DNA of 64,000 bases, from the IMG/VR virus record IMGVR_UViG_3300050821_003843, positions 8,918 to 72,917 of that record; one strand, written 5' to 3'. The notes beneath the pieces are model-generated. The model ran no database searches. It saw nothing but the letters and a program-made list of their open reading frames with translations, and was not told the origin of the DNA. The position numbers were made by a program, and so were the translations under genes. This DNA is from a virus. Position 1 is the first letter of the stretch; each line of letters opens with the position of its first letter. Below, piece by piece: positions 16,940 to 32,761 of this stretch.

Positions 16940-16976
16940 CCACTAGCTGACAGACCTAGGGCAAAAGTCTGTCGAC

Positions 16977-17082
16977 GGAGGTATGGCGAAACTGGTAGAC
17001 GCGACAAGATAAGGATGGTTCAATTCCGTCTGTAACTTATTTTGTAATGGATTATTTGTAGGTTCGAATCCTACTGCCTCCA
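16977..17082 (+). tRNA. tRNA-like RNA (Leu-type D arm, possible CAA loop) with an abnormally extended anticodon arm
   Basis: GGAGGTA/TGCCTCC acceptor; GCGAAACTGGTAGACGC D arm; GTAGG-TTCGAAT-CCTAC T arm; 10-bp plus 5-bp anticodon arm with a 5-nt bulge. Confidence 0.7.
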
Positions 17083-17083
17083 A

Positions 17084-17189
17084 TGAGACTGAATTCCACT
17101 TGAAGAGTACAGTGGTGAATTATCTAGTGCGTGGAAGGTCCATACGTTCTCAGCATGTCGTCTAGGTAATGCTGTAACCCACAGTCTCA
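17084..17189 (+). ncRNA. Putative structured RNA 3
   Basis: TGAGACTG/CAGTCTCA closing stem around three internal hairpins. Confidence 0.45.
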
Positions 17190-17229
17190 ATTTTCTTACT
17201 CCAACTCATGTTTTAGAAAGTGACACAAG

Positions 17230-18006
17230 ATGCTGACAGACAGACTTGAAGGGGTGACGGTATGCGTTGAATATTCTGATTTCCTACGTGAAACACTGCC
17301 GTACAATATGCGGCACTTTGACCGTTATTTGGTCATCACGAAGGAAGGAGACCATGATACGATTGGATTGTGTCGTAAACTTGGGGTGGATTATCTCACG
17401 ACTAACTTGATGACAAAGGGAGATCAGTTCGCTAAGTCACGAGGTATTGATTATGGAATCGCAAACCTGACTGGTGACGGTTGGGTCATTCATGTGGATG
17501 CTGACATCTGGCTACCTCCACAAACTCGACACCTGATTAGTCACGTTAGCTTAGACCCAAAATGTATCTACGGTATCGACCGGGTGAACTGTATTGGGTG
17601 GGACAACTGGAAAAAGTTTATCAGTATGGACCCTCACTTGGAAGAGGCACATCAGTTCTTATGGCATTGTCTGATTGTGCCACCCCCATTTCCACTAGGT
17701 GGTCGATTATCCTTTCGTGAGTATGGCGGGTATGTGCCAATCGGGTTCTTTCAAATGTGGCATCATGGACAGTGCCCCAAGCGTTATCCACTAAATCATA
17801 GTGGCGCAGAACGAACTGACGTACTCCATGCGTTACAGTGGGAACCAGAAAATCGTAGACTACTCCCTGAACTCGTGGCGGTTCATTTGGAATCAGAAAA
17901 GTCAGAACTGGGTAAGAACTGGAATGGTCGTAAGTCGATGAAGTTTGGACCACACCATCATCAACATGAGAAACATCACGAACACCATCAGAAGTATTGT
18001 GATTAG
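17230..18006 (+). CDS. GT-A-fold glycosyltransferase-like protein (paralog 3), His-rich C-terminus
   Basis: VCVEYSDFL, DAD, GFFQMW, HL..NWNGR shared with the genes at 904 and 1716. Confidence 0.65.
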   Translation: MLTDRLEGVTVCVEYSDFLRETLPYNMRHFDRYLVITKEGDHDTIGLCRKLGVDYLTTNLMTKGDQFAKSRGIDYGIANLTGDGWVIHVDADIWLPPQTRHLISHVSLDPKCIYGIDRVNCIGWDNWKKFISMDPHLEEAHQFLWHCLIVPPPFPLGGRLSFREYGGYVPIGFFQMWHHGQCPKRYPLNHSGAERTDVLHALQWEPENRRLLPELVAVHLESEKSELGKNWNGRKSMKFGPHHHQHEKHHEHHQKYCD

Positions 18007-18072
18007 GTAATTCCCTATTACCTAAATTGAGGTAATTGTCCTTTACCTTTTGTAGTTACTGACTGAGTAACT
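18005..18072. repeat. Tandem AGGTAA-N7-TTACCT palindromes plus AGTTACT-N5-AGTAACT
   Basis: 18005-18023, 18030-18048 and 18054-18072 read directly. Confidence 0.6.
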
Positions 18073-18080
18073 TTGATATT

Positions 18081-18183
18081 CGCTCCGTGGCGGAAGTAGA
18101 CGCACTCGACAGACTGAGACAGATGAGGAAGTGGTACAGATTCCACACGATCTGTAAATTGCTGGAAGATCCAGCCGGAGCGA
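18081..18183 (+). ncRNA. Degenerate tRNA-like RNA with large variable arm
   Basis: CGCTCCG/CGGAGCG acceptor; GCG-GAAGTAGA-CGC D arm; ACAGAT/ATCTGT long arm; GCTGG-AAGAT-CCAGC reduced T arm. Confidence 0.55.
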
Positions 18184-18193
18184 TTTTGAAATT

Positions 18194-18301
18194 GACGTTT
18201 TAGATTAGCAGTAGTGGTCTACCGGGCGATATCCAGTCCACGTTCAACTCGTGGCATGCAGTCGGATAACTGGGGTTCGATTCCCACTATTCTAAAACGT
18301 T
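18194..18301 (+). ncRNA. tRNA-like RNA with long closing stem and two T-loop-like hairpins
   Basis: ACGTTTTAGA/TCTAAAACGT stem; GTAG-TGGT-CTAC; TATCC/GGATA enclosing CCACG-TTCAACT-CGTGG; GGG-TTCGATT-CCC. Confidence 0.55.
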
Positions 18302-18320
18302 ATTTAATCAGGAACACGAT

Positions 18321-18548
18321 GTGCCTCTAGCTATCAAAAAGAAACTGCTACAATCCCAAGTCATATTTCGGTTCGAACACTCACATGGACCATATGACAG
18401 TGGTAGTTTTTACGATGGTGACACCAAATTTGCACAACTCACGCTTATGCGGGACTGTGAAGCCGCAAAATCGCTTGTAAGCCTGTTAAAACGTCAAGGG
18501 GTACAAATCATCGTACCCACGTTCGAAGTCGCTAACGAGGTCAAGTAG
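18321..18548 (+). CDS. Hypothetical protein (tandem paralog 1)
   Basis: MPLAIKK..EH..GPYD..LM...AK aligns with the next ORF. Confidence 0.6.
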   Translation: MPLAIKKKLLQSQVIFRFEHSHGPYDSGSFYDGDTKFAQLTLMRDCEAAKSLVSLLKRQGVQIIVPTFEVANEVK

Positions 18549-18549
18549 C

Positions 18550-18765
18550 GTGCCGATTGCCATCAAAAAACAGGTCAAGCCCCAATCGACTGTAAAATAC
18601 ACGATGGAACACCAACATACGAATGGACCGTATGATAACTTGAACGTGTACGCAAATGGTGTGCGTGTTGGTCAAGTGATATTGATGCACAACGTAGAGG
18701 CAAAGGGATTTATCCAGTTGATAACCCGGTCAGGTGTTCAACTGGTTGTGGATACACATAAGTGA
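18550..18765 (+). CDS. Hypothetical protein (tandem paralog 2)
   Basis: MPIAIKK..EH..GPYD..LM...AK. Confidence 0.6.
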   Translation: MPIAIKKQVKPQSTVKYTMEHQHTNGPYDNLNVYANGVRVGQVILMHNVEAKGFIQLITRSGVQLVVDTHK

Positions 18766-18777
18766 AGGAACAAGAAA

Positions 18778-20877
18778 ATCTTAGGAATCGACACAGAGAC
18801 TTCTGGCGTTGACAAATACCACGGAGCAGCCCCATTCTTTGTAACTGTGTGTGACGATAATGACAATCAAACTTATTGGGAGGCTGATGTCGATCCATTC
18901 ACCCGCAAACCTTTATGGGACTCTTCTGACCTACGCAGTATAAGAAAGACCATACTTGTACCGGGTGAGATGAAGATAATCCACAATGAGAAGTTTGATG
19001 TACCGATGTTGGACAACATCTTACCCGGACTAATGGATGAATGGCCTTGGGATTATACACATGACACGCTAATTAGTGGGCACTTGATTAACTCTAACGA
19101 ACCACACGATCTAACGAGTCAGGTTCTAATCCACTTAGGTCTGAACATCAAGCCAGTGGAAGACAAGCTGCACGAGGCAACAGCAGCAGCCCGTAGAATG
19201 TGTCGAACAAAAGCGTTTATTGCCCAGTTCGGTCAGTGGCGCATTGCTGAAAAGGGTGAAGAGGATTTACCATCGGCAAAGGATGCGACTTGGCAGTTTG
19301 ACACGTTTCTGCCTCGCATGGTAGCCAAATACCAATGGGAAGCGAGTGATGCATATACTGCCTTAGAAAACAGACAACCATTATCCATAATAGAAAAAAG
19401 TAATGGTTGGGAATGGCGTCCTCCTTCAGAAGTCTATGAGGGGTATCATCCGTGGTGGACAGTATTGTCAGAATACGCTAACCCAGATAGCGGGGTGTTA
19501 TGTTACTTGGCAAAGGCGCATCACAAGTGCCTACACGCAAATGATCTGTGGTCTATTTATCTTGAACGAATGAAACTTGTACCACAACTGTGTGCGATGG
19601 AGTCACGTGGCGCAACGTTGCATCAAGGCAGAATGACAGAACTGGAGGAACGGTTTACTAAAGCGTCAGAAGCGGCTGGCCGATTGTGTAAGAACATTGC
19701 ATCAAGGTATGACAACTACAAACTTGAGTTGCCTAAGAACGGGATGAACAACTCATTAAGGGGTTTTCTCTTTGATACAATGAGACTGGAATCACCGATC
19801 AAAACGGATTCAGGTGCCCCATCGTTCGATAAAAATGTGATCGAGCATTTTATGCTGACGCTCCCCACTAAGAGCAAGGAATTGACCTTCGTGGAAAAAT
19901 TAAGGGAAAAGCGTAGCGCAGACACAGCCCTTGGATATTTGACCAGTTATCGAAAGTACATGCTGCCCGATGAAGTGATGGACTTTTACCTGATACATTC
20001 CAAGGTGAATCCAACAGGTACAGCCACATTGCGCAACTCATCACAAGACCCCAATTCCCAACAGGTGAGTAAGAAAGAAGGATTCAACCTACGTTACGTG
20101 TTTGGTCCGTTACCCGGTCGCGAATGGTGGTCGATTGATTACGACAACTTGGAGTTGCGCATCCCAGCCTATGAGTCTGGCGAGCGGGTAATGATTGATA
20201 TCTTCGAAAAGCCCAACGATGCGCCCTACTTTGGCAGTTATCACTTATTAAATGCCAGTATCGTTTATCCTGACTTGTTCTGGCCATTAGCCGAAAAGAA
20301 AGGTGCATTCAAGGAAAAATACGGTTCGACCTACTACCAGTGGATCAAGAATTTCGATTTCGCCGATCAGTATGGTGCAATGTTGGGATCAGGTACAGCA
20401 GACCTAGCAGCACATAAACCCGGTGCGCAAGCAATGGTCCAGGCTAGATTGAAAGAAAAGAACAAACTCAATAACAAGTACATTGACTTGGCTAACAAGT
20501 GGGGGTTTGTTGAGACCATACCCGATATCGAGGTCAATCCACGACGGGGTTATCCGGTCTATTGTTCGCGTTCAAAGTGGGGGCGAGTATCGCCAACGAT
20601 TCCTCTAAACTACCATGTACAGTCTACAGCGTGTTGGATAAAAATGCGTGCTATGTTTAAGGTAGAAGAATACTTGCGGGCAAACAAACTCGATGCCTAC
20701 ATCATCCTCGAAATCCACGATGAATTGATCTTCGATTTCCCATTTGTAAAGGATAAAGGAAATTTACATCACTTGAATGCAATTCGAAAGATCATGGCAT
20801 CTCTAGGCGATTGTGTTGGCATTCCGTTGACGTGTGGACTTTCCTACCATCCTCACAACTGGGCACAAGCGTCATGA
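18778..20877 (+). CDS. polA: Family A DNA polymerase with 3'-5' exonuclease (probable AUC start)
   Basis: ExoI GIDTETSG lies upstream of the tracked start; HNEKFD; T.T.R.SS..PN.QQ; motif A DYDNLELRI; motif C IHDEL. Confidence 0.9.
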   Translation: MLGIDTETSGVDKYHGAAPFFVTVCDDNDNQTYWEADVDPFTRKPLWDSSDLRSIRKTILVPGEMKIIHNEKFDVPMLDNILPGLMDEWPWDYTHDTLISGHLINSNEPHDLTSQVLIHLGLNIKPVEDKLHEATAAARRMCRTKAFIAQFGQWRIAEKGEEDLPSAKDATWQFDTFLPRMVAKYQWEASDAYTALENRQPLSIIEKSNGWEWRPPSEVYEGYHPWWTVLSEYANPDSGVLCYLAKAHHKCLHANDLWSIYLERMKLVPQLCAMESRGATLHQGRMTELEERFTKASEAAGRLCKNIASRYDNYKLELPKNGMNNSLRGFLFDTMRLESPIKTDSGAPSFDKNVIEHFMLTLPTKSKELTFVEKLREKRSADTALGYLTSYRKYMLPDEVMDFYLIHSKVNPTGTATLRNSSQDPNSQQVSKKEGFNLRYVFGPLPGREWWSIDYDNLELRIPAYESGERVMIDIFEKPNDAPYFGSYHLLNASIVYPDLFWPLAEKKGAFKEKYGSTYYQWIKNFDFADQYGAMLGSGTADLAAHKPGAQAMVQARLKEKNKLNNKYIDLANKWGFVETIPDIEVNPRRGYPVYCSRSKWGRVSPTIPLNYHVQSTACWIKMRAMFKVEEYLRANKLDAYIILEIHDELIFDFPFVKDKGNLHHLNAIRKIMASLGDCVGIPLTCGLSYHPHNWAQAS

Positions 20878-21074
20878 ACCACAAGTTAGAAGTCGATGAC
20901 GACGCAATAGTGAATAACTACTACAGGGTCACAATGAGAAATCCACTACTACCAACAGAGTCAGAACTGGCAACACTGCGCAGTAAGTTACCCCACGTCA
21001 ACTATCAAATGTTGAGTCTTCACTGGTTGGCGAATCGAATTACAGAACTCAAAAAAGCAGGGAGGTTAAATTGA
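20874..21074 (+). CDS. Hypothetical protein
   Basis: ATGA overlap with the polymerase stop. Confidence 0.45.
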   Translation: MNHKLEVDDDAIVNNYYRVTMRNPLLPTESELATLRSKLPHVNYQMLSLHWLANRITELKKAGRLN

Positions 21075-21403
21075 GAGTGTTCAAACAGCATGAACTGCGA
21101 GAAGCATACGCCTATGCTGAAGCCGGTGAGATAGCTGTCCATGTCCATTTTATGGTATTCGCTAACTCGCCAGCATGTTTCAAACGTGATATGAATCGTG
21201 GCTATCCTATCGCTCACGTATTAGGACAGGATAAGGAACACCTGATTGCGATAGCCCATGACTGTGGTGTTAAGAAAGTGGTAGTAGAATGCCAAGGAAC
21301 TAGACGACAGCATATTGACCTATGTGGTAAGCCGTTGATCCATTGTCTAACACAAATGGATGTGGATATAGAAGATTACACTTTGGAGAAACAAGGCAAA
21401 TGA
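21071..21403 (+). CDS. Hypothetical protein (DUF4031-like)
   Basis: AH....D...L...A...G...QHIDL pattern; GGAGG RBS. Confidence 0.5.
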   Translation: MRVFKQHELREAYAYAEAGEIAVHVHFMVFANSPACFKRDMNRGYPIAHVLGQDKEHLIAIAHDCGVKKVVVECQGTRRQHIDLCGKPLIHCLTQMDVDIEDYTLEKQGK

Positions 21404-21711
21404 AGATTAGATTGGTATGCCCCGAAGGGTGGAAACAGTGTGGGTTCCAACGTCTTGTGTGTGATGCGGTTGAATGTAGTTTGAACGATAAGGTACGAAT
21501 TGCCGACACACTCAAACAATGGATCAATGATGGAGTGATGGAAGCTGAATCGAACCCGAGTACTGGCTTTGCGTTTGTGGATGGAAATAACTTGTTTGTG
21601 GAGTCAGGTGAAGGGACGACGTTACATGACTTCGCTGACTCGTTACAAGATGCTTCGAAATGTGTGGTAGAATACAAGGATGCAGATGATGAAGGGTGGC
21701 AAGTATGTTAG
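21400..21711 (+). CDS. Hypothetical protein
   Basis: Packed ORF with ATGA overlap. Confidence 0.45.
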   Translation: MKIRLVCPEGWKQCGFQRLVCDAVECSLNDKVRIADTLKQWINDGVMEAESNPSTGFAFVDGNNLFVESGEGTTLHDFADSLQDASKCVVEYKDADDEGWQVC

Positions 21712-22565
21712 TTGAAGAAGTTAAGAAGTTGACACCGTTACAAAGACTCTGTTTTTGGATAACCGAAAGGGAATCAATCAGGTTGAAAAAAGAAGCTGGT
21801 GATCCTAAACCGTGGAGCACGAACGAAGTATTACAGAATTTCCGCTTCTGCAATGTGATTAGGAGTGATGACAAGGTTTCACAGTGGCTCATGAACAACT
21901 GGTACACAAAGGAAAACATTGAGAAGGGGAATTTGGTAACGGCTTGTGTACTGGCACGACAGATCAACAATATCGAAACGATGACGGATATTGGCTACCC
22001 TCATCCATGGAACCCGAAACGAGTCGAAGCGATTTGTAAAAAACGTGTAGCCGATGGGAAAAAGGTATTCAACGGCGCTTACATCATCACGGGTGGGTTA
22101 GGTGGTGGTACGAAGGTGGAACAGGTGATTCACCTTGTGGTTGATCCAATCCATAAAGCGAAGGTAGCTCCAGTCTATGAGTCACTTGAGGCAACACATA
22201 CTCGATTGATGAATTATGTCGGTATGGGGTCATTTATTGCGGGGCAAGTGGTGGCAGACATTAAATTAGCTCTAAACCATGAAAACTATTGGCTTGATAG
22301 AAACACATGGGCTCCTATGGGTCCAGGTTCAAAACGTGGAATGAATCGACTTCACGAGCGCAACCCAGACGAGAAAAAGAATCAAGCCAAGTTCACAAAA
22401 GAACTTCAAGAACTTAGATCACAACTAAGGAAGTTGCTACCAGCAGATCTTTACTTGCGCATGGAAGCGATGGACCTTCAAAACTGCCTATGTGAATTTT
22501 CGAAGATGGAGCGCACGTTGTTCGATAGCAAACGACCCAAACAACTCTATCCGGGGGTGAAATGA
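21696..22565 (+). CDS. aGPT-Pplase1 / 5-hmdU DNA kinase helical domain protein
   Basis: ERESIR.KK..G..KPW....LQ.FRFCNV.R.DD..S.W; F.A.QV..D; GPGS.RG; D.QNCLCEFSK. Confidence 0.85.
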   Translation: MASMLVEEVKKLTPLQRLCFWITERESIRLKKEAGDPKPWSTNEVLQNFRFCNVIRSDDKVSQWLMNNWYTKENIEKGNLVTACVLARQINNIETMTDIGYPHPWNPKRVEAICKKRVADGKKVFNGAYIITGGLGGGTKVEQVIHLVVDPIHKAKVAPVYESLEATHTRLMNYVGMGSFIAGQVVADIKLALNHENYWLDRNTWAPMGPGSKRGMNRLHERNPDEKKNQAKFTKELQELRSQLRKLLPADLYLRMEAMDLQNCLCEFSKMERTLFDSKRPKQLYPGVK

Positions 22566-23143
22566 TTATTTCACTCCGGGGGACAAATGGATCAGGCAAG
22601 TCCACTGTCGTGCGTAAACTCATGGAACGCTACAACGCACAACCTGAGAGCCTTGATTCAAAGGGCAGACCGATGAACTATGTAATGACGTTGGGTAATG
22701 GATCATCACTGTACGTTGTAGGCTGCTATCAGAATGCTTGCGGTGGTTGCGACGGTATTCACCCCTTTACTGAAATTTGGCCACGTGTAACGCGATTGGC
22801 AGCGTTGGGACACGTGTTATTCGAGGGGCTGGCGTTTACCAGTGGTTACGGCAACATCGGCAAGGATAGTGAAGTGTATGGTGATGATTTTGTTTTTGCG
22901 TTTATGGATACCCCACCAGAAGTCTGTATCCAACGGGTACTTGCTCGACGTGAAGCAAAGGGAACTGAAAAACCGTACAGCCCAAAAAACCTGATGAGTA
23001 AGCTAAGTGCGGCGCGTAGCAGCGAACGTAAGATAAAAGAAGTGTACGGTAGGCGAGTTGTTTCAATCAATCACCGTGCAGCAGTTCAGCAGATTTTAGG
23101 GATCTACTATAATGCAAAACGAATTGAATGCATTGGAGTTTAG
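22562..23143 (+). CDS. 5-hmdU DNA kinase (P-loop)
   Basis: LRGTNGSGKST, G.Y...CGGCD, VLFEG, C..RV..RR; flanked by aGPT-Pplase genes. Confidence 0.8.
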   Translation: MIISLRGTNGSGKSTVVRKLMERYNAQPESLDSKGRPMNYVMTLGNGSSLYVVGCYQNACGGCDGIHPFTEIWPRVTRLAALGHVLFEGLAFTSGYGNIGKDSEVYGDDFVFAFMDTPPEVCIQRVLARREAKGTEKPYSPKNLMSKLSAARSSERKIKEVYGRRVVSINHRAAVQQILGIYYNAKRIECIGV

Positions 23144-23906
23144 TCGACAACTAATTACATTGAATGACTTAGATCCAACGTATGTTGTCTTGTGGTATGC
23201 GCAACTAGAGCCTGAACTAAAAGCAAAATTTCTCCTAGCTTACTTGTGCTTTTATCATTTTGGAACGGCATCATGGATCTGTTCACAAAATAACTATTGG
23301 CAAGGGATGATGGATGCGGCAGCAACGAAAGAGCGACCTAGAGCAAGTGAGCGTCGTCATTTTCGAGGGGGGCAAGCAACTCGGGCAATTCAGGACTTAA
23401 TTGATTTAAAACTGACTCCATTACGCATCGTTCAACACTGGTCGAATGGTAAAATTAAACCAAGCGCTTTGGAGGTAATACAGCAAGTTAAAAACCATCG
23501 TGGGTTTGGTGATTGGGTGAGTTTCAAAGCGGCTGACTTATTAGAACGATTGGCAATAGTCCAAGTTCAATTCACACCGGATGATGTATTCAACATGTAC
23601 GAATCGCCACGACTAGGCGCAGAATTGATTGCTGCACAACATGACGTTCCAATGGAACAGGCTTGTCAATTTGCCTACAACCATTTGACAGCAGGATTAA
23701 AGGATCTACTTGCTCCGCCACGTTGCGAACGACGATTGAACATCCAAGAGATTGAAACCTGCTTGTGCAAGTACCACAGTTACCACAAAGGTCATTATAA
23801 ATTAGGACAAGATGTTATCGAGGTGCGCCATGCAATTGAGTTGTATGGTAGCTTGCCGATGAGTAAACGTCTATTTAATGCTGGTAAGAGTGGAGGGCTG
23901 TGGTGA
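23112..23906 (+). CDS. Amino acid:DNA transferase (aGPT-Pplase2/ADDT)
   Basis: DLDP.Y, LAY..FY, R..ERRHFRG, GFG.W..FK.AD..ER, QE.ET.LCK..S...GHY..G.D. Confidence 0.85.
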   Translation: MQNELNALEFSRQLITLNDLDPTYVVLWYAQLEPELKAKFLLAYLCFYHFGTASWICSQNNYWQGMMDAAATKERPRASERRHFRGGQATRAIQDLIDLKLTPLRIVQHWSNGKIKPSALEVIQQVKNHRGFGDWVSFKAADLLERLAIVQVQFTPDDVFNMYESPRLGAELIAAQHDVPMEQACQFAYNHLTAGLKDLLAPPRCERRLNIQEIETCLCKYHSYHKGHYKLGQDVIEVRHAIELYGSLPMSKRLFNAGKSGGLW

Positions 23907-24745
23907 AAGACGTAATTGTCATTGGAGCGGGTATTATTGGCGCTACGATTGCTAAGTCACTACAGACGCAGGGAAGAGACGTATTGGTGATTGATAGTAA
24001 TGAGTCACTGGCGGGGACAAAACCCTCTGGGGGCCATTTAAAGCCATCATGGTTTGGAGGGATGTCGAAAACTGAGTATGAACCTGCAATGGAACTACTC
24101 AATGAGACTTGGGGATTGATTGAAGAACAGTTTACTATCAAGGCGTTGGGAATCAGTACGGGCGTCACTTCAACGGTTTATCGAGTTGACACGGATAAGG
24201 TAATTGAGTTTCCAAGGGTTGTAGGAAGAGTGTGTTCATTACAGTTTTTGGATAACTACCCAAATGTTGTATGGAACAATGGTGAAAGTCAGGAACGTTG
24301 CCGCTTGTTGATTGTCGCGGCTGGAGTGTGGTGTGGAACGTTACTTCCACAACTTGCTTTGAAAATACAGCGTAAGCAGGGAATATCGTTCCGATATAAA
24401 GGTCAGTTGAAAGAACCATTTATCAATCCGTGGGCACCATACAAGCAGATTGTTGCGCATCAACAATCGTCGAATGAGATTTGGATAGGCGATGGGTCTA
24501 CGATACTACAACCAAACTGGACAGCTAAAAGAGAACTTGAGTGTCGAACACGATGTGAGAATAACTTACAGAAGATGCAGTACATTCGTTCTATTACTGG
24601 GTTGCGACCCTACTGTGAAAGTGGGAAAGACCCTTGTCTATTAAAACAAGTTTTCAACCGTGTATGGGTCGCGACAGGTGCGGGTAAGTCTGGGACCATT
24701 GCAGCGGGTTGGGTTGCTAGAAAGATCATTGATGCCACGAGCTAA
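23900..24745 (+). CDS. FAD-dependent oxidoreductase/lyase (DAO family)
   Basis: VIVIGAGIIG, IVAAGVW, GLRPY, TGAGK.G. Confidence 0.85.
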   Translation: MVKDVIVIGAGIIGATIAKSLQTQGRDVLVIDSNESLAGTKPSGGHLKPSWFGGMSKTEYEPAMELLNETWGLIEEQFTIKALGISTGVTSTVYRVDTDKVIEFPRVVGRVCSLQFLDNYPNVVWNNGESQERCRLLIVAAGVWCGTLLPQLALKIQRKQGISFRYKGQLKEPFINPWAPYKQIVAHQQSSNEIWIGDGSTILQPNWTAKRELECRTRCENNLQKMQYIRSITGLRPYCESGKDPCLLKQVFNRVWVATGAGKSGTIAAGWVARKIIDATS

Positions 24746-25607
24746 AATCACTTCAGTCAATTGGACCTATGGGTGTGAGTTAGAACTAGGTGACGTGAGC
24801 AGAGACATAGTAATTCCTCTACAATATGGTAAATGGGAGTATGCTGAGACGGATATTGTCAACATACTTCCTCCATACCGGCATGTTGCTTGTGACCCAT
24901 TGGGGTTGGAACCACCAATGGGGGGTGAGATCAACACTGTTCCAACAATTGGTTGGAAATCACAAATCAAATTGATTGAAGAATTGTTGAAATGGTTAAT
25001 CACTGAGGGACAATCACCAACAACAAATTGTATATCACACACACACGTACATATCCACATACCGAGACTAGTACGTGACATTGAACTACTCAAAAAATTG
25101 ACTAGGTATATAATGGAGAATCAAGTTAAATCTGTTGATAGTTGCCTTCAATTTGATTCTAGGCAAATGTCTGCAAAATTAGGGGCGGGATATTTGAAAC
25201 TCGATTGTGGAAGACTGATGCCTGATTGGATGGGTGAGAATATTATCAACATGGCAAACTCGTTTGATGATTTTATCCGTATCCAGTGCTGTGGTAAAGA
25301 TGGTGTCAGTCGTGGTAGACCGTTTCGATATGCGATCAATACATACTGCCTAAAGCACACACAGACAATTGAATTCCGACTATTTCGTAGCTCACTTGAC
25401 TTACTAGAGCTCTCTGACTGCTTTCGATTCGTGGAACAATTCATGTTGGCGGCATTGAATGATGGACCTTCAGTGGATGAGTTATTGAGGGTAGGTTATA
25501 AGTTTCCTCCGTTTCGCTACTCGCTACCAGAAGTCGAAGGCTGGCTAAAAACGAAGTGGGATAAAAGTAGGGGGGAGAAGAAACGTGAATTCATTCCAGT
25601 TACGTGA
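24732..25607 (+). CDS. Putative amidoligase (COOH-NH2 ligase, amidoligase_2-like)
   Basis: TYGCELE, GGEINT.P, HTHVH, RY..N...L....TIEFR.F. Confidence 0.75.
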   Translation: MPRAKITSVNWTYGCELELGDVSRDIVIPLQYGKWEYAETDIVNILPPYRHVACDPLGLEPPMGGEINTVPTIGWKSQIKLIEELLKWLITEGQSPTTNCISHTHVHIHIPRLVRDIELLKKLTRYIMENQVKSVDSCLQFDSRQMSAKLGAGYLKLDCGRLMPDWMGENIINMANSFDDFIRIQCCGKDGVSRGRPFRYAINTYCLKHTQTIEFRLFRSSLDLLELSDCFRFVEQFMLAALNDGPSVDELLRVGYKFPPFRYSLPEVEGWLKTKWDKSRGEKKREFIPVT

Positions 25608-26115
25608 AACAACTCGCGGAGAGTTTGTGACTGCTACGGGGTTGCATCCAGTTGCGGCTGACTCATTTGCTAAAACATTTCGCGCTAAAGCCGATGCATT
25701 TGACCTATGGCCGTGCCTAGGCGTATGGAATGACAGGCAGCAACTGATGGGGGCGATTATTTGGACGATTACACAACGGCAACCGCATATCGCAAATTTA
25801 CAACTACTTCACACGTTCGCCGAGTATCGTCGACAGGGAGTGGCGTCAAAACTGTGTGTGGAGTGTTTAAATCGCGTGAGAGGGCTTGGGGCTGAGTATT
25901 TGAGGGTGAGTAGTGAGCCTGAAAGCGTGGCGTTTTACAAGAGCCTAGGCATTCAATTTTTAGGTAGGCAAAAATCAGGTTGCTTACTGGCGATGGGTCG
26001 ATTAACGGGTACTGATGGCGATTTCAGACAACTTAATTACTCATTAGAACACGAGCCGATAAGAAAAGCAGTGTTCCGAAAGGGTAAAGGAGGTTGTGTT
26101 GAAGTGTTTAAATAA
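25585..26115 (+). CDS. GNAT acetyltransferase
   Basis: YRRQGVAS.L and A..FY..LG motifs. Confidence 0.85.
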   Translation: MNSFQLRETTRGEFVTATGLHPVAADSFAKTFRAKADAFDLWPCLGVWNDRQQLMGAIIWTITQRQPHIANLQLLHTFAEYRRQGVASKLCVECLNRVRGLGAEYLRVSSEPESVAFYKSLGIQFLGRQKSGCLLAMGRLTGTDGDFRQLNYSLEHEPIRKAVFRKGKGGCVEVFK

Positions 26116-26143
26116 AAATAGCCCACCGGGTTAGGGCGGGCTA
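26112..26143 (-). terminator. Terminator between convergent genes
   Basis: TAGCCC..GGGCTA hairpin preceded by an A-run (U-tail on the minus strand). Confidence 0.5.
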
Positions 26144-26171
26144 ATGAAGTCAACTTATCAGACCAATAATG

Positions 26172-26588
26172 TTATTGCTTGACCCACACATTTCCCCGCT
26201 TACCTTCGGTTGATCCGTAAGCAACTCGACCGTCTTCCACCATCAATTTCAAATGATTGACGACAGGACCACCCTCTTTTCCACCGGGTGTACGACCTAG
26301 TCCGACAACGATTTCACGTGAGGAGTAATCGTGACCCTTCTTCATGAACTTGAGGATTTGATTTTGGAGTTCGGTTGTGTCGGTTCGTGTTGCTCGTGGG
26401 GCTGATTCCTTTTTCACTAATTTCGCAGCAGCCTTTTTCGTAGCCACTTTTTTCACGGGGGCAGTTGACTTGGCGGCAACCTTTTTCACTGCCTCCTTTT
26501 TAACAGGGGCAGGTGATGCAGCAGCATTCACGGGAGCACCGGTGACCACGCCATCAATCACAGCGTTTCCAACAACTTTCTTAGCCAT
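26172..26588 (-). CDS. Histone-H1-like Lys/Ala-rich region plus winged-helix DNA-binding domain
   Basis: PVKK/AAK repeats; IL..M......SSREI...L ... HL..MV..G.V. Confidence 0.6.
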   Translation of the reverse strand: MAKKVVGNAVIDGVVTGAPVNAAASPAPVKKEAVKKVAAKSTAPVKKVATKKAAAKLVKKESAPRATRTDTTELQNQILKFMKKGHDYSSREIVVGLGRTPGGKEGGPVVNHLKLMVEDGRVAYGSTEGKRGNVWVKQ

Positions 26589-26620
26589 AATTCGTCATCT
26601 TTCAAACTAGAACTTGAGGG

Positions 26621-26679
26621 TATCTGCCATCATCAGACCACGTAGATAAATTCGTGGTGACGCCCGGAGGCGTTTCGGC
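26621..26679 (-). ncRNA. Type II hammerhead ribozyme
   Basis: GCC-GAAA-CGCC-UCCG-GGCG-UC^-ACCACG-loop-CGUGGU-CUGAUGA-U-GGC; loop UAUCU can pair with 3' AGAUA (pseudoknot). Confidence 0.88.
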
Positions 26680-26868
26680 TTAGACACATACAGGGTAAGC
26701 AAGGGCAGAAGATTTGTGATGACCATTGATTAACGATTGGAGTTGTTCAACCGTCGCATCATCAACTTTTTCGTTCGAGATCAGGCGAGTTACCTGAACG
26801 ATGTTTTCGCTGGCGTCAATTCGGACTTGGTAGACTCGACCATTCAATTGGATTTTGTAAGTTTTCAT
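26680..26868 (-). CDS. Hypothetical early protein
   Basis: GAAGGAACAAATC-ATG leader after a promoter. Confidence 0.55.
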   Translation of the reverse strand: MKTYKIQLNGRVYQVRIDASENIVQVTRLISNEKVDDATVEQLQSLINGHHKSSALAYPVCV

Positions 26869-26923
26869 GATTTGTTCCTTCGTTTCGTGTGTGTCATTTC
26901 GTTTCGTTGAACCCGACAACAGA

Positions 26924-26952
26924 AGTATCGTCGAGGAGTGGAAGTTTGTAAA
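26924..26952 (-). promoter_or_regulatory. Sigma70-like promoter
   Basis: TTTACA-17-GATACT with an AT-rich upstream tract. Confidence 0.55.
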
Positions 26953-27022
26953 GGAAATTCTGTGAACTTTTCTACGGAATTTTCAAAATAGTTCTGAAAT
27001 CCCTATTTTAGAGGAGTTTTCT

Positions 27023-27640
27023 ATGAGAGAAATTGTTCGGATTCTCGTTGACATGGACGGTCTGTTGACGAATTTTGATGACGCGGCGTGCCTCGCACAT
27101 GGCTTTCCGATCCAAATGTTACACGATTACAGGCAGCCGGGTGAATGGTCGCTCATCCCTATTTTCGCTCGAATGCGGGGCGAAATCATGAGTGTGGAGG
27201 AATTTTGGAGGGTGATTGGCGAACATGGTGAACTATTTTGGACCTCGTTGGCGCAAACCGAATGGATGGACCCATTGCTCCAATTGGTTAAAGAATTCAA
27301 CGGTAGTGATTGGCATGTGGTAACAGCCCCAAGCCATTGCCCCACGTCGTATAGTGGAAAGGTGAAGTGGTTGAAGTCACGACTTGGCAAGGAATTTGAT
27401 CGGGTACTGGCAACCCCGCACAAGGAAATTTTAGCCATGCCGGGTGTTATACTGATTGATGACAACGAACAAAACATACAACGGTTTAAACTGGCCGGTG
27501 GTAGTGGGATCTTGTTCCCAATAATGGGGAACTGTCTACATCACTTGGCAAATAATCCAGTGGCTTACGTGCGTGAACAGATAGAAGAAAGGCTGTATAA
27601 GGATGAATCTGAAAGTAGGGCAGATAGTCACGTGGCTTGA
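27023..27640 (+). CDS. 5'(3')-deoxyribonucleotidase (HAD, NT5C-like)
   Basis: VDMDGLL.NF, VTAP, GK..WL, K..LA, LIDD...N...F. Confidence 0.85.
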   Translation: MREIVRILVDMDGLLTNFDDAACLAHGFPIQMLHDYRQPGEWSLIPIFARMRGEIMSVEEFWRVIGEHGELFWTSLAQTEWMDPLLQLVKEFNGSDWHVVTAPSHCPTSYSGKVKWLKSRLGKEFDRVLATPHKEILAMPGVILIDDNEQNIQRFKLAGGSGILFPIMGNCLHHLANNPVAYVREQIEERLYKDESESRADSHVA

Positions 27641-27818
27641 ACCAATTCGCACACAGATTGAAAACCGTGGGAATATGTTGGGACCACGGATGATAGATCA
27701 GGAATTACACCACAGTGGTGAAGTGATTTCGATTGAGGGTGATTCGTGTACGGTACGCGATTCATGGGGTTTGATTTGGCAACTGAAAATTGAAAAGGAC
27801 AAGTTGACATGCATCTAA
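27603..27818 (+). CDS. Small SH3-like hypothetical protein
   Basis: LKVGQIV..GEVISI pattern. Confidence 0.45.
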   Translation: MNLKVGQIVTWLEPIRTQIENRGNMLGPRMIDQELHHSGEVISIEGDSCTVRDSWGLIWQLKIEKDKLTCI

Positions 27819-28945
27819 AGTATCCAAACGTAAATGACGCATTCCACGAATTGGTCTACGGAATTCATAATGGACACATTCCAACCGTGTCATCACCTAG
27901 TAGAGTTGGTGACGTGTTACAAATCCAAGAACCTGTGATTGTCACATATGAAAAGCCGCTAGAGAGGGTGCTGTTCAACCCTGCACGCGATGTTAATCCA
28001 TTCCTGAACTTGTATGAAACACTTTGGATGTTGGCTGGCCGTAATGACATTGCACCATTGGAATATTACTCTAAGAACTATGGTCAGTTCGTGGATGATG
28101 GTGATGGAATGCAGAATGCAGCATATGGATATAGGTGGAGACATGCATTACATAAAGAAATGGGAGATCCATGTAGTAAGTGTGGTGAGAGCGTTCCTTG
28201 TCACTGCGACGCACCATATTGTGTAGATCAACTCAAAGTTATTATCGACCATTTACGAAAGATACCAACGTCAAGACGTGTCGTGCTCCAAATGTGGAAC
28301 GTAGAAGATGACTTACTCAAGATTGAAACAACAAAAGATGTTGCGTGCAATCTATGTGCGTTGTTCTCGTTGAGACAAGCTAGTCGAAAAGAAATAGAAG
28401 AAGAGGCACATAACGGCTACTATCTCGATATGACGGTCTACAATCGCTCGAATGACTTGACTCTTGGACTTTTGGGGGCGAACGTTGTTCACTTCTCATT
28501 TCTACAAGAATACATGGCGAATTGCTTAGGCGTTCAGGTGGGGGTGTATAATCAAGTGAGTAACAATCTCCATTGTTACACATCACGTTGGGAACCAGAT
28601 AAGTGGTTAGCAGAAGGTGTGTGTGATGAGTACAGAAACCAACAGTGGAATCATGTACCGTTAGTTAAGGACCAACAGACGTTTGATAGTGAGTGTCGTA
28701 ATTTTGTGGCTATGAACTTTTGCGGTGGTGTAATCCACGATAACCGTTGGGAAGAACCATTTTTGCGAACCGTGGCGCAACCGATGATGAATGCCTTCCA
28801 TTATCACAAACATCGCAAATACTGGGAAGCGTTGAATCACGGTGTTGCGAACATTGCTGACGGCGCTTGGCAATTGTGCGCATACAGATGGATTGAGAAA
28901 CGACGACTGGCTTGGGAAGCGAAAAAGGAGACGAATGATGAGTAG
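27809..28945 (+). CDS. Thymidylate synthase family dUMP hydroxymethylase
   Basis: NPF....E..W.LAG.ND, AYG.RW, DQL, SRR.V..MW, catalytic ACN, RSND...G..N, S.NLH.Y; near the hmdU kinase and transferase genes. Confidence 0.85.
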   Translation: MHLKYPNVNDAFHELVYGIHNGHIPTVSSPSRVGDVLQIQEPVIVTYEKPLERVLFNPARDVNPFLNLYETLWMLAGRNDIAPLEYYSKNYGQFVDDGDGMQNAAYGYRWRHALHKEMGDPCSKCGESVPCHCDAPYCVDQLKVIIDHLRKIPTSRRVVLQMWNVEDDLLKIETTKDVACNLCALFSLRQASRKEIEEEAHNGYYLDMTVYNRSNDLTLGLLGANVVHFSFLQEYMANCLGVQVGVYNQVSNNLHCYTSRWEPDKWLAEGVCDEYRNQQWNHVPLVKDQQTFDSECRNFVAMNFCGGVIHDNRWEEPFLRTVAQPMMNAFHYHKHRKYWEALNHGVANIADGAWQLCAYRWIEKRRLAWEAKKETNDE

Positions 28946-29180
28946 AGAAGTGTTACGCATGGCAACGATGGTGGCGAATCAACGATTGAACTGTATCAAA
29001 CGAGTCAAGGAGTTAAACAATCAACTCGGGTTGTTGCCATCAATGAAGCCAGAAGAGGTTGACAAGTCATTGAGGGAACTTGGATTACAGATCCTGAACC
29101 TCGATAATCTCCAGTCAGAATACCAGTCAATGAAACTACAAGCGGAGAACAGTGGTGATCTACCAGCCAATACGCACTAA
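28935..29180 (+). CDS. Hypothetical coiled-coil protein
   Basis: AAGGAG RBS. Confidence 0.5.
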   Translation: MMSREVLRMATMVANQRLNCIKRVKELNNQLGLLPSMKPEEVDKSLRELGLQILNLDNLQSEYQSMKLQAENSGDLPANTH

Positions 29181-29719
29181 GACAGATTTTGTACGGAGGT
29201 ATTCCTAGCGGAGAATTTGGCAATAGGTCTCCCACATGGAACGGCTGGCTTGATTGGAATAAAGATCATCTAGGTTCTGATAAGTTTGAATTGTTTCACA
29301 TTCGAAATCGTGTTGCAGGTGCAATGACTTGGTATGACGTGCCCAAATTCAAAATGGCTGATACGTGGGATATCGCTTGTCAACACTTTAGCGTGGAACA
29401 GTTGTACATATCTGCTATGTGCCCTACTGAGTTGACACAAATCCAAGGTGAGGTAATGAGAACAGCCAAAGGACTGTATCTCTATTACTCAACCGTAAAG
29501 AAGCCGATGCGTCAATCATTGTTGGAAGGGGGTCAAGAAGCACTAGGACTATTTGCAGTTTCTTTACTACAATACTACATGGATCAAAACAGTTGGGAAT
29601 GGTTGAATCACTTACTCGATAGTTATGAAGATCATGTCGTAGAGTTTACAACGCTCTCCAAACGGTGGGGCGCAGTCGAAGGATATAACACACTATTTTG
29701 GGAGGTTAGAAAGTTCTAA
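29152..29719 (+). CDS. Hypothetical protein, probably assembled by a +1 frameshift at 29203-29209
   Basis: GGAG-RBS/GTG ORF (..KTDFVRRYS-stop) joins the +1 frame (SGEFGNRSPTW..WEVR). Confidence 0.55.
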
Positions 29720-30441
29720 TGGATATTAAACAGTACGAAGAAGCCAGCATGCGCACGATGGCAGACCAGAATGTGATTCGTCTACGTAATTTTGAAGGCG
29801 TAGATAAAAAAGGTAATCCACAATTTGGCGGAAAAAATAGTAGTACAGTTCTGACACAACTCGACAACGCTGCTAGAGGCATGGCTGGTGATGTGGGTGA
29901 GGTCAATACGTGTGTACAACAAGCATTGGAGTATGGTAAACTACTAGACTTGGTGAATTTGAAGGAAGAACTAGGTGATGTGTTATGGCGAATCGTACAA
30001 GCATGTAACGCCGTGGGGTTCACGTTGGAGGAAGTGATGCAAGCGAACATTTCAAAGCTGGCTATAAGATACCCCGACAAGTACACGGACCACTTAGCAG
30101 ATGAGGCAAATCGAAATCGTGAAGCAGAACGACAAGCAATCACGGTTCCACAACTAGGCGAACCTTATCCAGTTGGTCATACGAATGACGGTGGAGTGAT
30201 TGTAGAACCAATGTCACCAACCAGAACAGTAATGTCTCAAACTGGACAAGGTTGGGCAGAACCAAAAGAACAACGTGATACGGGACCGGGTCGATTGGAT
30301 CAAGAACTAGAATACCCAGTTTCCAATGCATTTGTGTCTGCTGCTGATGCCCCTGTTCGTAGATGTCGAAAGTGCGGGTTGAAGATCCATCGTAATCAAC
30401 CAAGTGATATCTGTTCAAGTTGCTTCAAACCTACAACGTGA
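29719..30441 (+). CDS. MazG-like dNTP pyrophosphatase with C-terminal Zn ribbon
   Basis: GE.....KEELGD.LW, N..KL..RYP, CRKC..CSSC. Confidence 0.8.
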   Translation: MDIKQYEEASMRTMADQNVIRLRNFEGVDKKGNPQFGGKNSSTVLTQLDNAARGMAGDVGEVNTCVQQALEYGKLLDLVNLKEELGDVLWRIVQACNAVGFTLEEVMQANISKLAIRYPDKYTDHLADEANRNREAERQAITVPQLGEPYPVGHTNDGGVIVEPMSPTRTVMSQTGQGWAEPKEQRDTGPGRLDQELEYPVSNAFVSAADAPVRRCRKCGLKIHRNQPSDICSSCFKPTT

Positions 30442-30481
30442 GGATAGTTGATGACTTATCAAGTATTAGTTAGGATGAGTA

Positions 30482-32761
30482 ATGCCTAAAGCGATTGAAC
30501 GTGACACACTTCCAGCGGGGTTGAAGCCCTTTCGGTTCCACGGTCTTGATTTGAGTTATAAGGATGGTGATAAAAATGCAACGTGTCTGTGCCCATTTTG
30601 TGGTAAGGAAGGGAAGTTCACAATCCTTGCTGAGACGAGTCAATGGAGGTGTTTCAGTTGTAATGAGGGATTTGAGAAGAAGGACAACAATGGCCATGCG
30701 AAGTCGATCAAGGGTGGTAATGCTACGGAATTTCTACGTCTGTTGTGGAAATACTGTGATGCAGAACCTTGTGACTACACCGAATTGGTAAAGGATCGCA
30801 CATTACTCAGCCCAGTGATGTTGGTGCGTTGGGAGGTAGTCAAGTCATTTCTAACGGGTGAGTGGCTGATGCCCGCGTATAACATCAAGGGAGAACTGAT
30901 CCAACTCTATCGTTACGTGAATTGTAAAAACCCCAAAACAGGTGAGTGGAAACGTAAGTTGATTCCCACACCCGAAGTGGGTGGTCATGGATTATTCGGG
31001 ATGAGTGGATTCGACAGTAAGCGACCGATCATTGATGTGTTCGAATCATGGAACGGTGTGGTCTATGAGGAAGTGATTAGTCAGATTGGTATGAATGCTG
31101 AGACTGAGAAGTGGGAGGAGGTTGGTAAGTTCAAGGATTCGTTGGGGGCTGAACGAAATGTGATTGGCTTACCCGGTTGCGCTACGTTCGATTCGAAGTG
31201 GATGCCATTGTTTAAAGATCGTGTGGTCAACTTTTGGTTCGATAACGATCATCCCCAAGTGAATGAGCGAAATGGGCAATCAACAACGGGGGCGGGCTGG
31301 CTGTATTCGTGTCGTAATTCCAGCACACTTTTGAAGGTGGCGAAATCGGTACAGGTGTTAAAGTGGGGTGAGCAAGGTTTCGACCCCGAATTGACTTCGG
31401 GTTACGACGTTAGGGACGCTCTGAAGGCCCATAAATCGCTTTTGGGGCGTTCGGCGGCATTATTTGACCTAAAGGTCAAGTTACAAACCGTGGCCGCTAA
31501 CGAGGTCGTATCGAGCGCAAATTCGGCAGCGGGGGATGTGAATACCAAGCTACGACCGAAAACGTGTACCGACTTCAAAACACTGGTCAATTCGTGGAAG
31601 AAGCCGATGCGCTGGCGACAGGAGATGGAGGACGCTTTAGCGATCTGTCTAGCGGTGGGTTTGTCAACGGAACAGGTAGGGGACCAGTTGTTTCTGATGC
31701 TGATCGCTGACGCCGGGAGTGGAAAAACTTGTTTCTGTGATGCGTTACTTGTGGCGGAAAATAGTTACCCGGTTGAGAACGTGACAGGCTTGTATTCTGG
31801 CTGGCAGGGTGGTGGCTTCAGCCCATTGGAACGTATGAATCGTAAAATGTGGATTACAGCAGAGGGGGACACGGTTGTACAACATCCCGCATTTCCTCAA
31901 TTCATGTCACAAATTCGACGCGCATTCGATGGAAAGGGCCATGCCACATTCAAGAACTCGAAAGAGGATCAGTTATTCGATGGTCTTAGATTTACGTGGT
32001 TGCTGGCTGGTACACCAACAATGATTGACCTGATGAACAATCAAGCCTCATTGGGAGACCGGTTCCTCAAATTCTTTATCGGACAACCGGACGACGATGA
32101 GCGTCGACAGATACTCATGAGATCGGCTTACTCAGCAAAGCGGGCAGTACAAATCAAGTCGGGTGATGATGCAGAACATCAACTCGATCCAGCGTTGTGC
32201 GAGGCGTACCAGTTGACGGGAGGTTATCTCAATTGGCTTAGATCAAATACTGATCTACTCGCCAAAGTTGAAATGGATGATGAGCGATTGATGCAATGCG
32301 CTGACTTGGGAGAGTTCACGGCTTGCTTACGCGCTCGACCGGGTAAGACGAAAACCGATGAAGCCCACGATGCGAAGGAAATGCCCACACGTCTAACAAA
32401 ACAATTTGTACGGGTGGCGATGTGCCTTGCTGTGGTGTGCAATCGAGGGTCAGTCGATCAGCATATAATGGACCTAGTGCGAAAGTTGACACTCGATACG
32501 TCAATGGGGGTCACACTACAGATCGTGAAGCAACTCTATGCAAAAGGGAATGAGGGGTTGTCATACGGGGCACTGGCGCAACTGGTGAGTATGACGAATG
32601 ACAAAGTCAAATCCATGTTACGGTTTTTACACAAACTGAAAATCGTGGCATGGTACGAACCGATTGATGAGGAAACACAAAAGAAGTTACCTCACAAATG
32701 GCGAGTGACGAAACACATGGCGGAACTTTACAAATCTGTGATTGTTGATTGGGGACAATAA
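30482..32761 (+). CDS. Primase-helicase (Zn finger, TOPRIM-like, AAA+ P-loop)
   Basis: CPFC..CFSC, FDND, G.D.RD, ADAGSGKT, LGDRF. Confidence 0.75.
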   Translation: MPKAIERDTLPAGLKPFRFHGLDLSYKDGDKNATCLCPFCGKEGKFTILAETSQWRCFSCNEGFEKKDNNGHAKSIKGGNATEFLRLLWKYCDAEPCDYTELVKDRTLLSPVMLVRWEVVKSFLTGEWLMPAYNIKGELIQLYRYVNCKNPKTGEWKRKLIPTPEVGGHGLFGMSGFDSKRPIIDVFESWNGVVYEEVISQIGMNAETEKWEEVGKFKDSLGAERNVIGLPGCATFDSKWMPLFKDRVVNFWFDNDHPQVNERNGQSTTGAGWLYSCRNSSTLLKVAKSVQVLKWGEQGFDPELTSGYDVRDALKAHKSLLGRSAALFDLKVKLQTVAANEVVSSANSAAGDVNTKLRPKTCTDFKTLVNSWKKPMRWRQEMEDALAICLAVGLSTEQVGDQLFLMLIADAGSGKTCFCDALLVAENSYPVENVTGLYSGWQGGGFSPLERMNRKMWITAEGDTVVQHPAFPQFMSQIRRAFDGKGHATFKNSKEDQLFDGLRFTWLLAGTPTMIDLMNNQASLGDRFLKFFIGQPDDDERRQILMRSAYSAKRAVQIKSGDDAEHQLDPALCEAYQLTGGYLNWLRSNTDLLAKVEMDDERLMQCADLGEFTACLRARPGKTKTDEAHDAKEMPTRLTKQFVRVAMCLAVVCNRGSVDQHIMDLVRKLTLDTSMGVTLQIVKQLYAKGNEGLSYGALAQLVSMTNDKVKSMLRFLHKLKIVAWYEPIDEETQKKLPHKWRVTKHMAELYKSVIVDWGQ

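Follow-up and report, generated by a model that had tools for sequence, protein, structure and literature searches.

What does an amidoligase contribute to an operon of thymidine-hypermodification enzymes? The question is raised by six genes at positions 21696-26115 (plus strand) of the window, the 64,000-nucleotide stretch of viral DNA analysed here, which spans bases 8918-72917 of IMG/VR virus record IMGVR_UViG_3300050821_003843, a genome that is complete at 72,917 bp and carries direct terminal repeats. The genes run in the order HMUDK_hel protein, P-loop kinase, amino acid:DNA transferase (ADDT), FAD oxidase, amidoligase and GNAT. We propose, with a probability of about one half, that they form a post-replicative thymidine hypermodification operon in which the amidoligase acylates an aminomethyl amine on the base with a free carboxylate, the GNAT then adding an acetyl group to the amine so introduced; the product is probably a DNA base so far undescribed. 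The phage appears to represent an uncultured lineage, since the best relatives of its family-A DNA polymerase among 50,697 phage records are only ~26% identical, and megablast of the operon against the same records gave no nucleotide match.

The operon is filled by its six open reading frames (ORFs), with overlaps of 4-32 nt between neighbours if every gene is given its longest start, and Pfam and PHROGs put names on five of them. A first-pass annotation had described a six-gene set with an amidoligase between an FAD enzyme and a GNAT, and the overlapping plus-strand ORFs bear this out. Its comparison with phage PaMx11 was also correct, homologues of PaMx11 gp46, gp47, gp49, gp50 and gp51 all being recovered by BLASTP with the proteins of that phage (taken from locus L083). 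The first gene (21696-22565, +) encodes a predicted 5-hydroxymethyl-deoxyuridine (5-hmdU) DNA kinase helical-domain protein (HMUDK_hel, 1.8e-41; 31% identity to gp50, E 1e-27), and the second (22562-23143, +), joined to it by an ATGA overlap, a predicted P-loop 5-hmdU DNA kinase with a weak HMUDK_HMUD1 match (1.1e-3) and 34% identity to gp49 (E 1e-26). They are followed by a glycine-type ADDT (23112-23906, +; Pfam ADDT PF18724, 1.8e-12; 32% identity to gp46, E 1e-39) and a putative FAD-dependent N-alpha-glycinylthymine oxidase/lyase (23900-24745, +; DAO, 2.5e-22; phrog_16743, 5.6e-45; 35% identity to gp47, E 1e-57). The dUMP hydroxymethylase that had been placed within the same interval is not there; the candidate is instead a thymidylate synthase (TS) homologue at 27809-28945 (+; PF00303, 1.3e-21), 1.7 kb 3' of the operon and 38% identical to gp51 (E 4.5e-69). 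We infer hydroxymethylase activity for this protein, homology alone fitting a methylase too.

The functional residues of gp46 and gp47 are named in the available part of Wen et al. 2024 (PMC11472151), where gp46 is described as using Cys247 as nucleophile and Trp146, Lys150 and Asp24 to bind glycine, and where Arg242 of gp47 is the proposed reader of the glycine carboxylate. The window ADDT keeps 11 of the 12 gp46 residues named there, including Cys247, Trp146, Lys150, Asp24, Glu243 and Thr244, and with the catalytic Cys and the glycine-binding Trp and Lys present it fits the clade-2 aGPT-Pplase/ADDT enzymes. The window oxidase keeps eight of the nine gp47 residues (Trp51, Phe52, Tyr180, Gln182, Arg210, Arg242, Tyr244 and Lys268), the ninth, Lys202, being replaced by Leu. 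According to the available part of Lee et al. 2021 (PMC8989533), the PaMx11 pathway runs from 5-hmdU through 5-PmdU and N-alpha-glycinylthymine (N-alpha-GlyT) to 5-aminomethyl-deoxyuridine (5-aminomethyl-dU, 5-NmdU), and the nucleoside masses are 257 u for 5-NmdU and 299 u for its acetylated derivative, 5-AcNmdU. The 31-38% identities to the PaMx11 enzymes, taken together with the retained gp46 and gp47 residues, lead us to expect 5-aminomethyl-dU as an intermediate in the window phage as well.

The fifth gene (24732-25607, +) encodes a protein of 291 aa from the ATG at 24732; starting instead at the GTG at 24660 would bring the overlap with the oxidase gene to 86 nt. The protein has no Pfam match at E<=0.01, although a match to PF12224 at E<=0.1 is found in 26 of 30 aligned members of its family (best 6.7e-7). 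Its AlphaFold model has a mean pLDDT of 93.2, and when this was compared with 48,161 PDB representatives using VIA-align, the top 19 matches were all glutamine synthetase (GS), gamma-glutamylcysteine ligase (gamma-GCS), YbdK or PafA/Dop (Z 10.9-6.4), with a drop to Z 5.2 thereafter. The individual scores are 10.9 for YbdK, 9.7 for type III GS, 9.7 for gamma-GCS, 9.6 for GS, 8.9 for PafA and 8.6 for Dop. Foldseek places the same families on top, but at E 5e-3 or weaker, and the family profile has no matches among PDB sequences at E<=10, so that the fold call comes from the wide structural search by VIA-align. Nine residues (Glu16, Glu18, Glu66, His105, His107, Arg196, Arg199, Glu214 and Arg216) are invariant in all 30 ligase sequences. 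We therefore take the fifth gene product to be a GS-fold carboxylate-amine ligase of the Amidoligase_2 family (type 1), as predicted from sequence and model, an assignment that holds at the family level. Characterised GS-fold ligases mostly activate the gamma-carboxyl of glutamate, and we know of no precedent in the GS superfamily for a duplex-DNA base as the amine substrate. Iyer et al. (2009 and 2013) are said to have made the first predictions on amidoligases and DNA modification.

The sixth gene (25585-26115, +) encodes a GNAT N-acyltransferase (Acetyltransf_10, 6.8e-8, 33 bits against a cut-off of 23.6), which is the one protein encoded in the 72.9-kb genome to match PF00583 and contains the sequence RRQGVA, presumably the acetyl-CoA loop motif. 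With its model (pLDDT 94.5) Foldseek returns at least 500 matches at E<=1e-3, led by N-alpha-acetyltransferases (~1e-7), and the closest solved relatives are Naa30/Naa50/Ard1/RimI and the phosphinothricin and glyphosate N-acetyltransferases. The protein had been equated with the PaMx11 acetyltransferase; it is the same type of enzyme as gp48 and not its orthologue. BLASTP with the window proteins gives no match to gp48 at E<=10, and a six-sequence gp48-family hidden Markov model (HMM) finds nothing at E<=10 in the six-frame translated window, the GNAT included. A profile of the amidoligase-partner GNATs does match PaMx11 gp48 weakly (2.1e-6), and the two families are only faintly related at the profile level. 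The amidoligase is likewise not an extra gene inserted into a PaMx11-like ADDT-FAD-GNAT set, as had been supposed: gp48 is absent, and the GNAT belongs with the amidoligase, whose constant partner it is judging from their adjacency in 79 of 80 related viral loci.

These loci are the best 80 of at least 392 ligase-encoding IMG/VR stretches. They were detected with an alignment-based scan, whereas scanning viral contigs with the ligase sequence alone returned no relative; at least 540 proteins homologous to the window ligase were found. The GNAT homologue lying directly 3' of the amidoligase in the 79 loci is 40-56% identical to that of the window, and the shared operon reads TET_JBP, glutamine amidotransferase (GATase), amidoligase, GNAT, a 151-aa ORF, ADDT and kinase. 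Genes were counted with HMMs built on clustered ORFs, following Pfam annotation of L002, and over the 80 loci GATase was found in 78, TET in 71, ADDT in 68 and kinase in 62; the same survey found the oxidase (DAO), TS, HMUDK_hel and gp48-like genes in none. Where enough flank is present, GNAT, ADDT and kinase lie downstream of the type-1 amidoligase in 55/55 loci, with GATase upstream in 58/58 and TET in 57/58. Active N-terminal nucleophile (Ntn) amidotransferases start Met-Cys, and since 67 of 74 GATase ORFs open in this way, the GATases of these clusters should be active glutaminases. The ~151-aa conserved ORF between GNAT and ADDT (L002 8441-8896), for which no Pfam match was found, has homologues in 42 of the 80 loci; the median length in its cluster is 434 aa, and some loci thus have a much longer version. 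A view of the ligase-GNAT pair as unrelated to thymidine modification, which followed from a single-sequence tblastn search with ADDT, kinase, oxidase and TS (0/80), was rejected when the HMM survey found divergent ADDT and kinase genes.

The ADDTs differ with their context. The glycine-binding Trp146 and Lys150 (gp46 numbering, residues as named in the available part of PMC11472151) are kept in all 33 ADDTs found with an oxidase, whereas in those found with a GATase Trp146 is replaced by Tyr in 49 of 53 and Lys150 by Phe or Tyr in 49 of 53, with Cys247 retained in 48 of 53. The ADDTs of the TET_JBP/GATase clusters (L002-L081; for example L002 8886-9872) keep the catalytic Cys, Glu and Thr. 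The residue changes point to a nucleophile other than glycine, for which ammonia would be our guess. No match to GATase_6 was found in the whole 72.9-kb record; nor was one to Tet_JBP, a weaker absence given that the control genomes are silent too. Locus-derived HMMs, based on 74 GATase ORFs and 69 TET ORFs, likewise found nothing in window positions 14001-34000. From these absences the window cluster appears to be a mosaic, in which a PaMx11-type front end is joined to a ligase-GNAT pair. A scan of contigs from genomes and metagenome-assembled genomes (MAGs) matched only two MAG contigs, one of them L134 (JAKQQL010000281.1). Another mosaic is seen there at 3175-11210, where a TS gene is followed by amidoligase, GNAT, GATase, ADDT and HMUDK_hel genes, so that a GATase-type module is accompanied by a TS homologue and an HMUDK_hel protein in place of TET_JBP.

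A second survey was centred on gp47-like oxidases, using 23 IMG/VR and 25 JGI/NCBI metagenome contigs together with phage Simon and PaMx11; the resulting 50 rows include 42 unique loci, 32 of which continue for 1 kb or more beyond the oxidase gene. The first-pass annotation had proposed looking for neighbourhoods that combine ADDT, DAO, amidoligase and GNAT, and among these 32 the amidoligase is recurrent, occurring in 12 and abutting the oxidase gene in ten. A gp48-like acetyltransferase is found in fewer (6/32), the two never occur together (0/32), and 14 of the 32 have neither. GATase is absent from all 50 rows, and a window-type GNAT occurs in one of the 32 loci (L093). The gene order of the window from the helical-domain protein through kinase and ADDT to oxidase is common to L107, L108 and L109. 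Contig sizes of 3144, 3750, 9243, 10102, 43022, 74025 and 74469 bp are common to the close relatives of the window ligase and those of the window oxidase, which suggests that further window-like clusters exist. TET_JBP stands alongside a gp47-like oxidase and an ADDT in L084, L103, L104 and L106 (in L084 with a type-2 amidoligase ~1 kb upstream as well), and from this co-occurrence the 5-hmdU source and the tailoring enzymes appear to recombine freely.

A tree of 80 ligase sequences, comprising 69 rows drawn from 93 HMM matches and 11 database proteins (envelopes shorter than 150 residues, among them the phage Simon ligase, and identical sequences were dropped), resolves two deep lineages split at 100/100 support, the two types being 26-34% identical. 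Type 2 is represented by eight rows, all in oxidase context, and neither GNAT nor gp48 was found in the oxidase loci with type-2 amidoligases. In type 1 all 58 TET-context rows nest together (support 89/100, not starred), and the window ligase and P0004-P0007 (100/92) branch below them, together with L093 and L107. Tandem amidoligases are seen in L107 (3753-5700), where a type 1 (3e-133) and then a type 2 (9e-27) gene immediately follow the gene for a gp47-like oxidase with 57% identity to the window enzyme; no GNAT is present in the remaining 1.2 kb. This tandem arrangement is as expected for stepwise building of a chain.

The scheme that we propose begins with the TS homologue, which would supply 5-hydroxymethyl-dU, and with phosphorylation of this base in DNA by the two-part kinase. 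The glycine-type ADDT would then install N-alpha-glycinylthymine, and the gp47-like flavoenzyme would cleave it to 5-aminomethyl-dU and glyoxylate. Up to this point the scheme has homology and conserved residues behind it. After the oxidase has acted the base would bear only a primary amine, and a ligase acting downstream must therefore bring the carboxylate. As the ligase stands in the slot of gp48, the acetyltransferase that caps this amine in PaMx11, and is never found with it, it would most simply cap the same amine, using ATP to turn a free carboxylate into an acyl phosphate and joining this to the primary amine on the DNA. An amino acid is the probable source of the carboxylate, the superfamily precedent being glutamate joined through its gamma-carboxyl, and the partner GNAT would N-acetylate the amine that the amino acid brings in, giving 5-(N-acetyl-aminoacyl-aminomethyl)-dU. 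The first-pass annotation had likewise suggested that the aminomethyl-U amine may be acylated and then acetylated. The nearest solved relatives of the GNAT act on the alpha-amines of peptides or of amino-acid analogues. The fold of the ligase and these relatives fit an amino-acid donor followed by N-acetylation, although as hints they are weak and generic. In the TET_JBP/GATase clusters, a non-glycine ADDT and glutamine-derived ammonia may reach the same aminomethyl intermediate, the GATase and this ADDT being functionally equivalent to glycine transfer plus oxidative cleavage. The mutual exclusivity of oxidase and GATase, with the co-varying ADDT residues, suggests that the ligase-GNAT pair would see the same substrate in both types of cluster. 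More tentatively, and as a possibility rather than a likelihood, the side chain built on the thymine of duplex DNA may be a short N-acetylated aminoacyl group (peptide-like, possibly gamma-glutamyl), with the 5-aminomethyl-dU amine supplied by two unrelated routes: glycine transfer and flavin cleavage in the window, and an ammonia-fed non-glycine ADDT with a stand-alone Ntn GATase in hundreds of TET_JBP-type clusters.

Several points weigh against this scheme. The acyl donor and the order of the steps are our own deductions. The window amidoligase matches PF12224 at E 0.029 and 14.7 bits, under the gathering cut-off of 22, and the structural matches of the GNAT are generic to its fold. The non-overlap of ligase and gp48 is marginal (hypergeometric P 0.043, uncorrected for the relatedness among the loci). 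A GNAT is missing beside most amidoligases in oxidase context, those of type 2, so acetylation is not obligatory, and L093 is the only other fetched locus with the oxidase-amidoligase-GNAT arrangement. Finally, the pairing of GATase with amidoligase resembles glutamine-dependent amidation of a carboxylate, and such pairs are described, in the available part of PMC10580990, in phages that have no ADDT (LUZ24-like, phiEco32 and OM43 phages), which suggests that it is the ligase, not the ADDT, that the GATase works with.

This last point leads to the strongest of the alternatives, in which the amidoligase activates the carboxylate of DNA-borne N-alpha-glycinylthymine for amidation by ammonia or an amine, giving a glycinamide-type thymine. 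The GATase would then feed ammonia to the ligase in the TET/GATase clusters, and in the window phage oxidase and ligase would branch from one intermediate. A GATase with a GS-like ligase is the classic glutamine-dependent layout, and the position of the gene directly upstream in 58/58 loci and the Met-Cys start of 67 of the 74 ORFs agree with it, as do the pairs in ADDT-less phages (PMC10580990, available part). The fold relative PafA (Z 8.9) also activates a carboxylate borne by a macromolecule. However, no GATase is present in the window or in the 12 amidoligase-bearing oxidase loci, and GATase-context ADDTs lack Trp146 and Lys150, so that a glycine carboxylate may not exist there at all. 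The window oxidase moreover keeps Arg242 (assigned its role in the available part of PMC11472151); amidation would block the oxidase, or the oxidase would destroy the substrate of the ligase. We regard this alternative as unlikely.

Distinctly less probable, in our view, is a route to the known base 5-AcNmdU, with the GNAT acting as a non-orthologous replacement of gp48 that acetylates 5-aminomethyl-dU directly and the amidoligase as an accessory enzyme, concerned for example with a cofactor, a different position or a small share of the bases. The GNAT is the only one in the genome, it has the RRQGVA sequence that we take to be an acetyl-CoA loop motif, and the profile of its family finds gp48, if weakly, at 2.1e-6; the gp48-family HMM, on the other hand, misses the window GNAT at E<=10. 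Against replacement there is also the distribution of the GNAT, which is found only with the amidoligase (79/80 loci; 55/55 with enough flank), while type-2 ligase oxidase loci have neither GNAT nor gp48, so that a ligase can finish alone; and the ligase itself is left unexplained. Least probable of all is that the amidoligase-GNAT pair acts off DNA, on a host metabolite, a protein or the cell wall, and merely rides in an early-gene operon: ADDT-less phages do carry amidoligase and GATase, for which cell wall or secondary metabolites are suggested (PMC10580990, available part), and the literature searched holds no biochemically characterised Amidoligase_2 member, but the pair is always embedded among DNA-modification genes where the flank suffices (55/55 and 58/58) and in all 12 amidoligase-bearing oxidase loci, and in the window its genes overlap the oxidase gene.

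The surroundings of the operon contain further genes that may bear on nucleotide metabolism. Just past the operon lies a terminator-like GC-rich hairpin (26119-26143, -; 9 bp with a T-run), a function assigned from its form, which is the only clear terminator-like site adjoining the cluster. It lies downstream of a 138-aa ORF with no Pfam match (26172-26588, -), convergent with the operon. A possible deoxynucleotide 5'-nucleotidase, which might remodel the pool, is encoded at 27023-27640 (+), with a weak NT5C match (9.7e-4, 19.5 bits, cut-off 24.8), and a MazG-type nucleotide pyrophosphohydrolase at 29719-30441 (+; Pfam MazG, 1.8e-9), with a possible role in dTTP/dUTP depletion. Directly 3' of the latter is a 759-aa ORF (30482-32761, +) with no Pfam match at E<=0.01. 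The ORF at 17230-18006 (+), upstream of the DNA polymerase, has a weak Glycos_transf_2 match (5.6e-5, 23.6 bits, cut-off 23.3).

Amidoligases have already been noted with 5-HMUDK/ADDT genes in metaviromes, as of unknown function (Lee et al. 2021, PMC8989533, available part), and the TET_JBP/GATase clusters described above are of the kind noted there. We found no activity or product assigned to them in the texts of the literature searched, although the figures or supplements of Lee et al. 2021 might draw an oxidase-amidoligase contig; the text of the 2026 dapT paper mentions neither amidoligase nor ligase. We consider the following to be new: the mosaic architecture, the exclusivity of ligase and gp48, that of oxidase and GATase with co-varying ADDT residues, and the resulting scheme. 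Should the more tentative reading hold, with its two routes to the amine, no carboxylate-amine ligase would have been described before with a DNA base as substrate, and the products would make up a new family of hypermodified thymines. Such thymines shield phage DNA from restriction and other nucleases, and each new thymine chemistry has yielded enzymes active directly on duplex DNA. The ligase family is a common one (at least 540 proteins and 392 viral-contig stretches), and the window offers the most tractable entry to it: the opening four steps should match those in PaMx11, for which purified and crystallised enzymes exist, and 5-aminomethyl-dU DNA, the proposed substrate of the ligase, can therefore be made in vitro. 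ATP-dependent acylation of an aminomethyl handle on DNA would serve site-selective DNA labelling.

Among known systems the window is closest in its front end to PaMx11, from which it has five homologues (31-38% identity, E 1e-26 to 4.5e-69) with the glycine-binding and catalytic residues kept (as named in the available part of PMC11472151) and the same expected intermediate, 5-aminomethyl-dU. It differs in having no gp48 orthologue, with an amidoligase and a longer GNAT (176 aa against 140 aa) instead, and in gene order, which runs from helical-domain protein and kinase to ADDT and oxidase, whereas in PaMx11 ADDT and oxidase come first, followed by acetyltransferase, kinase and helical-domain protein. 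The TET_JBP clusters share the amidoligase (50-57% identical) and the GNAT (40-56%) in the same abutting order, but in the window a TS homologue stands in for TET_JBP, a gp47-like oxidase and a glycine-type ADDT are present, and the kinase is of the HMUDK_hel plus gp49 type, not the Ploopntkinase3 type.

The GNAT-less oxidase-amidoligase loci (phage Simon PQ683277 and metagenome loci such as L090, L097, L108, L116, L119 and L123) resemble the window in having an ADDT, a gp47-like oxidase with an amidoligase directly after it, and kinase and TS genes nearby; their ligases belong to the deeply separate type-2 lineage and no GNAT is present. In Simon (L082; PQ683277.1, an isolate record that is unverified and unannotated; record positions 9593-24390, reverse complement) the order is ADDT, DAO, a 135-aa ORF, type-2 amidoligase, low-molecular-weight (LMW) phosphatase, kinase, helical-domain protein, Nmad5, TS and HD nucleotidase, with the LMW phosphatase and Nmad5 genes instead of a GNAT. 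The phosphatase (LMWPc, 5.2e-15) is phosphotyrosine-phosphatase-like, and its presence amid a pathway through a phosphorylated base is unexplained; the Nmad5 match is at 7.5e-20.

With the GS superfamily (GS, gamma-GCS, YbdK, GmaS, 1-naphthylamine GS and PafA) the window ligase shares the fold over residues 3-270 (Z 8.6-10.9), and ATP-dependent carboxylate-amine ligation would by analogy be its expected chemistry; its invariant acidic, His and Arg residues, candidates for metal and ATP binding, lie on core strands. It differs in being a minimal 291-aa domain of only 8-15% identity, and in the amine substrate proposed for it, a duplex-DNA base. A parallel to the scheme as a whole is found in tRNA, where flavin-dependent removal of a carboxymethyl group by MnmC exposes the amine of aminomethyl-uridine, which is then capped. 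Lee et al. 2021 (PMC8989533, available part) likened the phage pathway to this tRNA route, from cmnm5U through nm5U to mnm5U (MnmEG/MnmC). In tRNA the substrate is RNA and the cap a methyl group, whereas in the window phage the same kind of amine, exposed on DNA, would be capped by ATP-dependent acylation and acetylation.

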